Source: Hyphomicrobiales bacterium (GTDB lineage Bacteria > Pseudomonadota > Alphaproteobacteria > Rhizobiales > JANPGK01). From it: a stretch of DNA of 64,000 nucleotides. The position numbers and the translations under genes are program-made. The stretch's first letter is position 1. The number at the start of each line of letters is the position of its first letter. The stretch spans positions 73 through 64,072 of the forward strand of contig JANPGK010000012.1 in NCBI GenBank assembly GCA_031423895.1, written 5' to 3'. Positions 739-51,186 of the stretch are shown here, piece by piece. The notes beneath the pieces were generated by a model. That model did not search any database, was not told where the DNA came from, and worked only from the letters and a program-made list of their open reading frames with translations.

Positions 739-775
739 CATCATCCTCAGGCTTGGGCGAGGATCTACTTTTTTC
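739..775 (+). terminator. Hairpin plus T-run after truA; a degenerate single-hairpin copy of the 'GATCCTCGGG' repeat family
   Basis: catcATCCTCaggcttgggcGAGGATctac is followed by tttttt, 5 nt after the truA stop. Its tail (gaggatctactt) matches the repeats at 48152 and 50349. Confidence 0.5.
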
Positions 776-25446: not shown

Positions 25447-25453
25447 TTAGATC

Positions 25454-25525
25454 GTCATCCTCGGGCGCGTCCCGAGGATCTTCTCGACATTAAAAGTAGA
25501 TCCTCGGCTTAAGGCCGAGGATGAC
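25454..25525. repeat. Double-hairpin palindromic repeat, family B, copy in the accB-accC spacer
   Basis: GTCATCCTCGGGcgcgtCCCGAGGATc ... gATCCTCGGCttaagGCCGAGGATGAC. The termini are inverted copies of GTCATCCTCGG. Confidence 0.85.
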
Positions 25526-25537
25526 AGGATAGAAAAA

Positions 25538-32526: not shown

Positions 32527-33246
32527 GTGCACTATCCCCTATATCCACCGCAAAAACTGATTTTAAATGGTGTGAGCCTGCAGCGGGGGCATGACATAAT
32601 TTTGCGTGAGGTGAATTTCACATTCAATAGCGGCGCGTGCTATAGCATTTTGGGGCCAAACGGTATTGGCAAAACCACATTATTGCGTGCGATTTGCGGG
32701 CTGCTGCCACCACTTTCTGGCACCATCACACATACATGCGATGGCGCATTGGCGCAACATGCGCATTTTCTTGCGCATACCAATGGCGTGAAAGCCACAC
32801 TAACCGTGGCGGAGCAGCTGGCGTTTTGGCGCGGGGTGCTGGTCGAAACCGAAACTTCTTTTGAGTGTCATTCTGAGGCGCAGCCGAAGAATCTCCCTGA
32901 ACGGAGCGCAACTCAGGGAAGATCCTTCGCTTCACTCAGGATGACAGCGATTGAGGATGACGCAATTATTCAAATAATAGGCCTCACCGACTTTACCAAT
33001 ACACCCACCACAAAGCTCTCCGCAGGGCAGCGCAAACGCTTGGCATTAGGGCGTATACTCATCGCGCCGCGCCCCATTTGGTGCTTGGACGAGCCCACCA
33101 ACACGCTCGATGCACATGGCGTGCAATTATTGACCAGCATGATAGCACAACACACTCAAAATGGCGGTATTGCGCTGGTGGCAACGCATATTCAGCCACT
33201 TTTTGAGGGTGAGATCGCGCTTAACTTACAACATTTTGCGAGTTAG
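32527..33246 (+). CDS. ccmA: Heme exporter ATP-binding protein CcmA, carrying an in-frame repeat-derived insertion
   Basis: It has Walker A GPNGIGKTTLLR, signature LSAGQRKRLAL and Walker B IWCLDEP. At 239 aa it is longer than the roughly 200-210 aa usual for CcmA. The start is a GTG. Confidence 0.88.
   Translation: MHYPLYPPQKLILNGVSLQRGHDIILREVNFTFNSGACYSILGPNGIGKTTLLRAICGLLPPLSGTITHTCDGALAQHAHFLAHTNGVKATLTVAEQLAFWRGVLVETETSFECHSEAQPKNLPERSATQGRSFASLRMTAIEDDAIIQIIGLTDFTNTPTTKLSAGQRKRLALGRILIAPRPIWCLDEPTNTLDAHGVQLLTSMIAQHTQNGGIALVATHIQPLFEGEIALNLQHFAS
32867..32945. repeat. Long imperfect palindromic element (family C, GTCATyCTGAGG type) inside ccmA
   Basis: GTCATTCTGAGgcgcagCCGAAGAATCTCCCTGAacggagcgcaacTCAGGGAAGATCCTTCGcttcaCTCAGGATGAC. 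It is translated as ..CHSEAQPKNLPERSATQGRSFASLRMT.. Confidence 0.85.
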
Positions 33247-33694
33247 CGGATTGTGGCTTCATCATTGTACGTGAATATGCCCATACGCTCGCGCACGCAA
33301 CGCCTATGATAGATGATATTTGAGCGCCTTTTTTCAATTGTGCGATCCAATCTTGTAATACATGATCATACATATAAGAAATCGCACGTGCGGCATCGAT
33401 ATTGTAAACCTCATACGCAGCAAATACCTGATTACGAACAATATTATTAAATTTTTCTAGTGCATCTACGATTTCTGATTTGCGGTACTCATTTGAAAGC
33501 TGACTCCCAAGAACGAGCGCTTCATCCATGAGATTTTTATATGGACGAATCTTCCCATTACGTGCTGCTTCCATAAAAAATTTTGCTGCTTCAATATCTT
33601 CTTTATATTTTTGATCTTTTACAAACTGGCCAAGATCTCTTCCAATTTTTGGTATAGGTAAGGCTGTATTCAACATAAGTTCAAGCGCTAACAT
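33221..33694 (-). CDS. AT-rich tail-anchored orphan protein P6 (157 aa)
   Basis: The N-domain is helical. The C-terminus is ISSIIGVACASVWAYSRTMMKPQSANSQNVVS. The 3' end overlaps the ccmA 3' end by 26 nt (convergent). Confidence 0.7.
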   Translation of the reverse strand: MLALELMLNTALPIPKIGRDLGQFVKDQKYKEDIEAAKFFMEAARNGKIRPYKNLMDEALVLGSQLSNEYRKSEIVDALEKFNNIVRNQVFAAYEVYNIDAARAISYMYDHVLQDWIAQLKKGAQISSIIGVACASVWAYSRTMMKPQSANSQNVVS

Positions 33695-48151: not shown

Positions 48152-48223
48152 AACCGTTATCCTCGGGCTAGACCCGAGGATCTACTTAAGTTGATGGTCG
48201 GGTCTAGCCCGACCATGACGGTT
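48152..48223. repeat. Double-hairpin palindromic repeat, family B, filling the ahcY/ubiG convergent spacer
   Basis: aaccgtt-ATCCTCGGGctagaCCCGAGGATctacttaagttg-ATGGTCGGGtctagCCCGACCAT-gacggtt. The outer inverted pair is aaccgt/acggtt. The right end overlaps the ubiG stop codon. Confidence 0.88.
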
Positions 48224-49043
48224 ATGATTTGATCCCCACCACTATATAATTCACGCTGGTGTCGGCACCTGTTTTCCATGTGCCCATCAGCGGGTTATAC
48301 TGCATGCCGAGAGTGGTTGTGGGCATGATGCCTGCATCGCTCATCCAACCTTTCAACGTGTGTGGCGCTACGAATAATGAATGGTCATGCGTGCCGATGG
48401 GCAGCAAGCGCAGCACATATTCTGCCCCCAAAATTGCCAATAAATACGACCAAATGGTTTTATTGAGCGTGGAGAAAAACACCAAGCCGCCTGGGCGCGT
48501 TAAATCAGCGCACATCTTCACAAAGCCGGCTTGGTCGCCCACATGCTCGATCACTTCCAACGCGCACACTACATCAAACTGCTGGCCTTTGGCGATCAAT
48601 TCACTGGCATCATAGCTGCCATAGGTGATGCCTAGCCCTTGTTCGGCATTACGTTTTTTGGCAATTTCAATGTTCGGCGCCGATAAATCCAACCCCGTGG
48701 TGGCAAACCCCATGCGCGCCAGCGGCTCGGTGAGCAACCCCGCACCACAGCCAACGTCTAGGGCGGTGAGGTGGGAAAATAAACCCCTCTCCCTTGACGG
48801 GAGAGGGATGAGGGGTAATACCCCGAATGAAGGGGTGGGTGAGGGTGGTGTGCGTGTTTCACCCTCATCCGATTTGCTGCGCAAATCACCTTCTCCCGTC
48901 AAGGGAGAAGGAAGTGACGCCATCACCGCATCGCGAATAAACTTCAACCGCACGGGGTTCATTTGGTGCAATGGGCGCATGGGGCCGTTTTCGTCCCACC
49001 ATTCATTGGCCAGTTTATCAAAATTTTCTGTGTGTAGCGACAT
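48222..49043 (-). CDS. ubiG: Ubiquinone biosynthesis O-methyltransferase UbiG, carrying an in-frame repeat-derived insertion
   Basis: MSLHTENFDKLANEWWDENGPMRPLHQMNPVRLKFI.. is followed by ..LDVGCGAGLLTEPLAR.. and ..VVCALEVIEHV... The ORF-track start at 49547 is a spurious extension antisense to lysC. Confidence 0.9.
   Translation of the reverse strand: MSLHTENFDKLANEWWDENGPMRPLHQMNPVRLKFIRDAVMASLPSPLTGEGDLRSKSDEGETRTPPSPTPSFGVLPLIPLPSRERGLFSHLTALDVGCGAGLLTEPLARMGFATTGLDLSAPNIEIAKKRNAEQGLGITYGSYDASELIAKGQQFDVVCALEVIEHVGDQAGFVKMCADLTRPGGLVFFSTLNKTIWSYLLAILGAEYVLRLLPIGTHDHSLFVAPHTLKGWMSDAGIMPTTTLGMQYNPLMGTWKTGADTSVNYIVVGIKS
48785..48917 (+). repeat. Triple-hairpin repeat, family A, copy 2, located inside the ubiG coding sequence
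   Basis: It contains ccctctccc-ttgac-gggagaggg, then ..gggtgaggg..ccctcatcc.., then ccttctccc-gtcaa-gggagaagg, and ends in aagtg. It is read on the minus strand as SLPSPLTGEGDLRSKSDEGETRTPPSPTPSFGVLPLIPLPSRERG. Confidence 0.88.
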
Positions 49044-50346: not shown

Positions 50347-50348
50347 AT

Positions 50349-50418
50349 TTAAGTAGATCCTCGGGCGAAGACCCGAGGATCTACTTAAGAAGATGGTCGG
50401 GTCAAGCCCGACCATGAC
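50349..50418. repeat. Double-hairpin palindromic repeat, family B, in the lysC/peroxiredoxin convergent spacer
   Basis: TTAAGTAGATCCTCGGGcgaagaCCCGAGGATCTACTTAAgaag-ATGGTCGGGtcaagCCCGACCAT-gac. It is nearly identical to the copy at 48152. Confidence 0.9.
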
Positions 50419-50427
50419 GTGCGGGCC

Positions 50428-50944: not shown

Positions 50945-51067
50945 CCCTTCTCCCCTTGCGGGAGAAGGTGGCAGCGAAGCTGACGGATGAGGGGTTTTCT
51001 CATAAAACAGTCAAGTAACCCCTCACCCGCCCTTTCAGGGCACCCTCTCCCGCAAGGGGAGAGGGGA
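50945..51067 (+). repeat. Triple-hairpin repeat, family A, copy 3 (peroxiredoxin/gltB divergent spacer)
   Basis: It contains ccttctcc-ccttgcg-ggagaagg, then ggatgaggggtt..aacccctcaccc, then ccctctccc-gcaa-ggggagaggg. Confidence 0.88.
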
Positions 51068-51186
51068 AATAACGAAGCCACCCTATGCTAAAATTCTGCG
51101 CCTGTCAGCAGCAAAAAATCCTTTGTCAAATGTGCATATCCGTAGTAAGAGCGTGCGGTTATGCTGCATAGCAATGTGGCAGAACA

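Follow-up and report, generated by a model that had tools for sequence, protein, structure and literature searches.

The ccmA gene at positions 32527-33246 (plus strand) of a 64,000-nucleotide stretch of DNA from a Hyphomicrobiales bacterium (contig JANPGK010000012.1, positions 73 to 64,072; the whole stretch is called the window here and all coordinates are counted from its first base) contains an 81-nt palindrome, at 32866-32946, that is translated as part of the protein. On its sequence, this element is an inverted dimer of TGTC/CGTC-tagged repetitive extragenic palindromes (REPs), similar in organisation to the REP doublets that form hairpins (REPINs). It is placed here in the CGTC superfamily of Di Nocera, De Gregorio & Rocco (2013 BMC Genomics 14:522; PMC3733652), which that paper splits into four families. 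Very probably, the dimer was inserted into ccmA and has been kept as tolerated selfish or neutral DNA that was filtered by selection, and is not an adaptation.

Results

A REP dimer translated within ccmA

The initial annotation had described a nested palindrome at 32867-32945, and the sequence reads identically: GTCATTCTGAGG..CCGAAGAATC-TCCCTGA-12 nt-TCAGGGA-AGATCCTTCG..CTCAGGATGAC. The palindrome stands, but the length of 79 nt that had been given to the element does not, since 79 is not a multiple of three; the outer T and A are the outermost bases of the TGTC tags, and adding both takes the element to 81 nt, corresponding to codons 114-140 (CHSEAQPKNLPERSATQGRSFASLRMT). Within CcmA it is read as ...TSFECHSEAQPK..., and the sequence flanking it on either side is ...ACTTCTTTTGAG|GCGATTGAGGAT.... 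Only one of the six reading frames of the 81-nt element is free of stop codons, namely the one that is translated. The terminal arms identified in a repeat search (32866-32877, TGTCATTCTGAG; 32935-32946, CTCAGGATGACA) are 92% complementary, and the RNA fold of 32860-32955 has an energy of -39.7 kcal/mol compared to -27.1 +/- 3.2 kcal/mol for dinucleotide shuffles (z = -3.9), with none of 200 shuffles as stable.

Each half of the palindrome has the parts of a REP monomer, and the two are arranged with their tags outward and their tails inward. The left monomer (32866-32897, plus strand) has a TGTC tag (32866-69), two stem arms (ATTCTGAGG, 32870-78, and CCGAAGAAT, 32884-92) around the loop CGCAG (32879-83), and the tail CTCCC (32893-97); the right monomer (32915-32946, minus strand) reads TGTC-ATCCTGAG-TGAAG-CGAAGGAT-CTTCC. 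Between them is a spacer (32898-32914); together with the neighbouring bases of the tails it contains a shorter palindrome of 7 bp, TCCCTGA (32894-32900) and TCAGGGA (32913-32919), around a 12-nt centre (32901-32912). The two monomers share a tandem G.A/A.G mismatch at stem positions 6-7, and its presence in both suggests a heritable feature of a subfamily instead of decay.

As described in PMC3733652, CGTC REPs have the tag CGTC (often TGTC, with CCTC as another variant), stems 8-9 positions long that open with A-T and T-A pairs, loops measuring 4-5 nt and an unpaired 3-nt tail with the consensus CCA; they occur mainly as inverted dimers with tags outward, in which spacers with complementary ends have been described, and chiefly in Alphaproteobacteria, with five phyla reported. 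The ccmA element agrees with this description in its TGTC tag at 32866-32869 and the complement GACA at 32943-32946, in its stems of 9 positions with an AT start and loops of 5 nt, and in being a tags-outward inverted dimer that folds into one large stem-loop. The same source states that intragenic CGTC dimers are read in frame as 20-30 amino acids, the peptides in its supplement (20-33 amino acids) including CHSRESGNP, VIPWLDHGIQ...CGMT and VIPAKAGI...EIPAFAGMT, and the ccmA peptide CHS...LRMT is in the same register as these CHS.../...MT peptides. Unlike the published REPs, those of the ccmA type have stems with a conserved tandem G.A mismatch and are not fully paired; furthermore, ccmA is absent from the intragenic targets published there.

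Other roles for the hairpin were considered. An intrinsic terminator or promoter within ccmA was rejected, as no T-run follows the hairpin and consensus scans were at the level of shuffled sequence. An Rfam scan of the whole window gave nothing at gathering score; a mir-802 match at the element was sub-threshold (25 bits against a cut-off of 86) and was rejected as a generic hairpin resemblance. Searching the literature for the DNA motifs returned primers and vectors only.

The element is an in-frame insertion relative to CcmA orthologues

When the protein collection was searched with the window CcmA, the protein itself was followed by a single sequence at 50% identity (P0002) and then by ordinary CcmA proteins of about 204-215 amino acids at no more than 40% identity. 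An alignment of 80 CcmA sequences, with the window protein and P0002 included, was used for comparison. The distance from W101 to the leucine of LSAGQ is 62 residues in the window protein, as the initial annotation had counted, and 67 in P0002; in the other 78 it is 27-37 residues, with a mode of 28 (54 sequences). The columns of residues 114-140 are filled only in the window protein and P0002 (2/80), whereas those on either side have an occupancy of 4-20/80 (residues 109-113) and 7-10/80 (residues 141-142). Judged by this alignment, the palindrome is an in-frame insertion relative to the orthologues, because 78 of the 80 are without it and the alignment gap coincides exactly with its 27 codons; the insertion that had been proposed from the DNA alone can now be given boundaries, at codons 114-140. 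The E. coli CcmA (7F02) is alignable to residues 20-102 and 149-229 only. The sole orthologue with an equally long segment, P0002, is not free of palindromes and bears a strong one of its own (see below).

Just beyond the dimer, 6 nt to its 3' side, is a possible orphan REP end (32953-32962, minus strand). Its sequence, CGTCATCCTC, agrees at 10/10 positions with the tag and the first stem bases of the intergenic copy at 25453; none of 300 shuffles scored so high in local alignment. These bases overlap codons E143-D145, which are in alignment columns filled in 79-80 of the 80 orthologues. The 10-mer may be an orphan REP end derived from the insertion, native codons, a site of microhomology or a chance match. 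If the 15 nt encoding AIEDD (32947-32961) were also derived from a REP, the insertion would grow to 96 nt (32 codons), and the remaining 30 residues would be within the normal 27-31.

The insert is predicted to form a loop in an otherwise conserved ATPase

The ccmA gene was identified from the open reading frame (ORF) listing and by the TIGR01189 profile as encoding a heme ABC (ATP-binding cassette) exporter ATP-binding protein; it has a GTG start and a product of 239 amino acids. The protein scores 179.4 bits against TIGR01189, with a cut-off of 131.6, the match being broken into two stretches. All 12 invariant and all 31 near-invariant columns of the alignment are retained, and Walker A, LSAGQ, Walker B and the H-loop histidine are intact; the invariant residues kept include G43, N45, G46, G48, K49, G167, D188, E189 and P190, and the near-invariant ones S165, Q168 and H221.

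An AlphaFold2 model was made from the same alignment and is confident overall (mean predicted local distance difference test score, pLDDT, 90; predicted template modelling score 0.86). The closest folds in a structure comparison are the CcmA chains of CcmABCD complexes 8CE5, 8CE1 and 7F02. The only weak stretch is residues 108-143, where the mean pLDDT of 10-residue blocks is 64, 57 and 51, with values under 50 at residues 129-137. It is flanked by the helix 94-107, which follows the Q-loop, and by a short helix 144-150, which precedes LSAGQ, and this agrees with the location between the Q-loop region and the ABC signature that had been assigned to the palindrome. The mean Kyte-Doolittle hydropathy of the insert is -0.97 compared to +0.18 for the rest of CcmA. 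In the model, the insert is probably a disordered, hydrophilic loop of 27 residues in the alpha-helical subdomain. Most likely it hardly affects ATP binding or hydrolysis, harmlessness being an inference here, and CcmA would be expected to work with the insert in place.

On its 3' side ccmA meets a convergent ORF of 157 amino acids (33221-33694, minus strand), which runs about 25 nt into the stop region of ccmA and for which a Pfam scan gave no match. The gene appears to be separated from the remaining ccm genes.

Another palindrome occupies this loop in the nearest relative

The gene for P0002 lies on a metagenome contig of 998 nt (L001; GCA_029981595.1, JARVMN010248972.1) that shares with the window the divergent acnA-ccmA gene order and the GTG-started N-terminus of CcmA. 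The ccmA of this contig also contains a nested palindrome, of about 135-143 nt at 522-664, with arms at 522-549 and 637-664; folded as DNA, the palindrome has an energy of -53.6 kcal/mol (z = -9.1). It is built of terminal CTCCCCC-CTTGC-GGGGGAG hairpins, an inner hairpin and then GAGGGGGGT/ACCCCCCTC, a layout that is the same as that of a second group of palindromes in the window (family A, below). It was considered whether this insert might be a decayed REP, and the idea was dropped since its modules match the family A architecture. DNA alignment gave no convincing similarity between the inserts of the two genes. The L001 insert occupies the same inter-helix loop as the REP dimer of the window, and the model of P0002 has low confidence across the insert only, between the equivalent helices. 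Two independent colonisations of one permissive CcmA loop are the simplest reading; alternatively, one element may have been replaced by another in that loop.

The REP type is widespread

A collection with one genome per GTDB species (596 Gb) was scanned with the pattern GTCATYCTGAGN{4,8}CGAAGRATC. The pattern, which the left ccmA monomer matches, was present in at least 120 other genome stretches (L002-L121), compared with a chance expectation of about 22 for the whole collection if equal base frequencies are assumed. The matches listed contain 160 monomers, 158 of them with flanking sequence sufficient for scoring, and give the monomer form (T/C)GTC-ATYCT-GAG-CGNAG-CGA-AGRAT-C. The tandem G.A mismatch is present throughout the 160, with a C-GNA-G triloop core, and the commonest loops are CGCAG (39), CGAAG (28), CGTAG (15) and CGGAG (10). 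At position -1, 75% of the 158 monomers have T and 17% have C (92% together), so that the tag reads TGTC or CGTC; at +1, T is present in 80%, and C is the majority base at +2. The Y/R stem positions are Watson-Crick compatible in 156 of the 158. The left ccmA monomer has the majority state, T, at both -1 and +1. Positions -1 and +1 and the Y/R pairing lay outside the search pattern, and they agree with both ccmA monomers.

Inverted dimers were also found among the matches listed: there are 15, of 66-139 nt with GTCAT...ATGAC outer ends, and two of these measure exactly 79 nt between the GTC ends. The hosts of the matches listed belong to about 18 phylum-level groups, against the five phyla reported for CGTC REPs, and include cultured isolates; among them are the candidate phyla radiation (CPR), Chloroflexota, Acidobacteriota, Bacteroidota, Bacillota, Planctomycetota, Nitrospirota and Campylobacterota.

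Twenty of the 160 monomers listed lie in frames with at least 60 stop-free codons to either side. Six such ORFs were compared with Pfam: two had no match, three had the element upstream of the sole recognised domain, and one (L081) had it between recognised domains. The L081 monomer (2764-2788, in a metagenome-assembled genome of an uncultured Bacteroidales) encodes AVILSEAKNL where the AAA+ lid of an NtrC-type sigma-54 activator ends, and a degenerate second monomer (GLRMT) follows 14 codons further on. The REP start GTCATCCTGAGC coincides base for base with the codons of the AVILS motif that is native to this protein family, which leaves two readings: a dimer that entered in frame at a microhomology, or coincidence.

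Other repeats in the window

The termini of the ccmA palindrome had been recognised in the initial annotation as being of the same type as those of an intergenic family, family B, and the same type was found at all four family B loci. These are a CGTC/TGTC REP dimer of a sister subfamily between accB and accC (25453-25526), a REP heterodimer in the space where ahcY and ubiG converge (48152-48223), a REP-type pair where lysC and the peroxiredoxin gene converge (50348-50419) and a single degenerate REP (740-768, plus strand) that lies 6 nt past the truA stop codon and upstream of dnaK. All four have GTCATCCTCGGG.../...CCGAGGATGAC termini and all are intergenic, at the 3' ends of genes; intergenic CGTC REPs are likewise described as lying just past stop codons in PMC3733652. 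In some of the intergenic copies GTAG stands beside the stem (AAGTAGATCC at 25493 and 50352).

Family A has three members in the window. Two are intergenic and about 120-125 nt long, at 2799-2918 in the dnaK/dnaJ spacer and at 50945-51069 upstream of a peroxiredoxin gene facing gltB. The third, of 128 nt (48784-48911), lies inside ubiG (49043..48222, minus strand) and is read in frame as UbiG residues 45-87 (...SPLTGEGDLRSKSDEGETRTPPSPTPSFGVLPLIPLPSRERG...), with terminal CCCTCTCCC-loop-GGGAGAGGG hairpins. UbiG scores 243.7 bits against TIGR01983 and has 262 residues over 226 profile positions. This element is about 16 kb from ccmA and is a second colonisation of a coding region in 64 kb; taken together, two of the eight palindromic elements in the window (those of ccmA and ubiG) are in coding frame. 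The family A core sequence had no match in a literature search.

A sliding-window census of folds also gave peaks in murA, hisD, lysC and gltB. Those in murA and hisD were inspected, had no inverted repeats and were dismissed. Separately, the intergenic segment 14941-15070 folds with unusual stability, at -50.5 kcal/mol per 100 nt, which is over 3 standard deviations under the mean of the window; Rfam gave no match there, and just a weak 10-nt inverted repeat was found in it.

Discussion

Insertion and persistence of the element

The data are explained if a hairpin-forming element arrived in ccmA by transposition. By analogy with the GTAG REPs and their REP-associated tyrosine transposases (RAYTs), mobilisation would act on single-stranded hairpin DNA and would leave no target duplication. 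No direct repeat flanks the ccmA element in the sequence; this absence is consistent with IS200/IS605-like chemistry and is no proof of it. The element would persist because its 81 nt keep the frame, the frame used has no stop codon and it landed in a length-variable loop of the helical subdomain; an insertion at another place in ccmA, or in another frame, would have been lost to selection.

Several observations weigh against this explanation. The loop that holds the insert is a structurally diverse region of ABC ATPases and can face the membrane subunits. ccmB is not adjacent to the window ccmA. A near relative in which the site is empty was not found; the most similar sequence is 50% identical, and a metagenome scan for a closer CcmA (with an alignment of the two-sequence clade and with the patterns GPNGIGKT and LIAPRPIW) gave distant CcmA only, at no more than 38% identity. 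The window holds four related intergenic loci, but the exact ccmA subfamily, with its CTGAG...CGAAG stems, has no further copy there. Furthermore, the halves of the dimer are unlike in their loops (CGCAG compared to TGAAG), making it a heterodimer or a decayed copy, and the tails CTCCC and CTTCC do not fit the published CCA. With regard to mobilisation, tblastn with E. coli RayT, a single distant query against partial genomes, gave no E-value below 0.5 in the window or at the 120 REP loci listed; a weak match in L020 was rejected as it lies inside an unrelated 663-aa gene. PMC3733652 reports that no transposase has been found for the CGTC REPs; the GTAG REPs use RAYT transposases, of the HUH type, on single-stranded hairpins.

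Alternative explanations

The insert could by now be useful to CcmA as an exapted loop, for example by contacting CcmB or CcmC or by tuning the ATPase. The helical subdomain couples ABC ATPases to their membrane subunits, and two related lineages hold an insert of 27-45 residues in the same loop. Functional effects of intragenic REPs have also been raised by Di Nocera et al. (PMC3733652). However, the two inserts are unrelated in sequence, unequal in length and both predicted to be disordered, the 78 orthologues with a short segment manage without such an insert, and the near-perfect palindromy of the DNA indicates constraint at the level of DNA, or youth, and not optimisation of the protein. 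Such a role is considered quite improbable.

It is also very unlikely that this ccmA is inactive or decaying, its function having been lost or being supplied by another copy in the genome. The absence of a neighbouring ccmB, the presence downstream of a convergent ORF of unknown family, and the fact that 64 kb of the genome was examined all leave room for it. On the other side, the ORF is intact and scores above the TIGR01189 trusted cut-off with all invariant and near-invariant residues kept, the model is confident outside the loop, and both the acnA synteny and the N-terminus are conserved in L001. By the initial annotation, its claim would fail if this gene proved to be a pseudogene with a second, intact ccmA elsewhere; no second ccmA was detected by tblastn within the window.

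It is extremely unlikely that the palindrome was formed in place, within a loop of already greater length, whether by duplicating and inverting local sequence or by gene conversion from a REP located elsewhere. The REP-end-like 10-mer 6 nt downstream could mark a local rearrangement or a microhomology, and the formation of REPs de novo is left open by Di Nocera et al. (PMC3733652). Against this, both monomers, with their tag and tail positions included, match a family present in at least 120 unrelated genomes, and the alignment gap is exactly the 27 codons of the element. Finally, a chimeric join or fold-back from metagenome assembly can create palindromes, but is almost certainly not the source here, where the arms are imperfect (a T/C difference), the loops differ, the element is in frame and stop-free with colinear ccmA on both sides, and an analogous insert is present in an independent assembly (L001).

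Relation to known palindromic elements

The insertion of a REP dimer into ccmA can be compared with the Rickettsia palindromic elements (RPEs), which are palindromes that colonise coding genes in frame and are tolerated as added peptide (Ogata et al. 2000, 2002; PMC10969869); their families have Rickettsia-specific consensus sequences, RPE-1 being about 100-150 bp (PMC10969869). This parallel had been drawn in the initial annotation. It is apt, the ccmA element also being in frame in a coding gene and tolerated as an extra peptide segment, and it is closer than was claimed because PMC3733652 equates RPEs with CGTC REPs (in R. conorii, RPE-6 is a CGTC-1 REP and RPE-4 a CGTC-4 REP) and lists in-frame dimers. 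It is not complete, since beyond a common TGTCATTC start the ccmA peptide and DNA differ from RPE-6 and RPE-4, as compared by the readings in S3 of PMC3733652; as peptides, RPE-6 gives CHSRESGNP and the ccmA-type stem and loop CHSEAQPKNL. Nor is the host a Rickettsia. It is placed by sequence as a divergent alphaproteobacterium because its AcnA is no more than 74% identical to any other in the protein collection and the named matches, Pseudorhodoplanes, Xanthobacteraceae and Kaistia, are Hyphomicrobiales.

REPINs (Bertels & Rainey 2011) consist of two inverted REPs with a short spacer that form one hairpin of about 70-110 nt, and are non-autonomous and multi-copy (PMC3116915). The ccmA element has the same construction of inverted REPs and a short spacer and folds as a single long hairpin. 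It differs in that REPINs carry GTAG-type REPs, are defined by their link to RAYTs and are described as extragenic (PMC3116915), whereas the ccmA monomers have TGTC in place of GTAG and the element is intragenic. ERIC, Correia, BOX and QMITE1 are further bacterial miniature inverted-repeat transposable elements, likewise small and non-autonomous, that now and then lie inside genes and are translated as in-frame fusions (PMC10969869). They bear the terminal inverted repeats and target-site duplications typical of such elements when derived from insertion sequences; unlike these, the ccmA element has no flanking direct repeat.

Implications

The phenomenon is already known, from intragenic CGTC REP dimers and RPEs, and the ccmA case adds one example. 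Interest in it is raised by the parallel colonisation of the CcmA loop, by the second in-frame element in ubiG and by the spread of this REP across the bacteria. The two genes amount to an experiment of nature on insertion into an ABC ATPase that is small and has a solved structure (CcmA of CcmABCD), in which this loop tolerates 27-45 extra residues. In addition, such inserts lengthen proteins and split matches to hidden Markov models, and their recognition as REP dimers prevents misannotation. The REP type itself, with its tandem G.A stem and GNA triloop and about 18 phylum-level groups among the matches listed, may be the more useful lead.

It is possible, although somewhat short of probable, that the CcmA loop is a recurrent landing site, entered independently by two unrelated palindrome families in two sister lineages of an alphaproteobacterial clade that is poorly sampled, and that the rate of entry into coding sequences in this clade is like that of Rickettsia. 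If so, either insertion would be targeted to features of the DNA or of transcription, or this loop would be among very few permissive sites in a small ABC ATPase, and heavy colonisation of genes in the manner of RPEs would reach beyond the Rickettsiales. The window comes from a lineage other than Rickettsia in which palindromic repeats are translated in housekeeping proteins, and this bears on the seeding of protein segments by selfish DNA.

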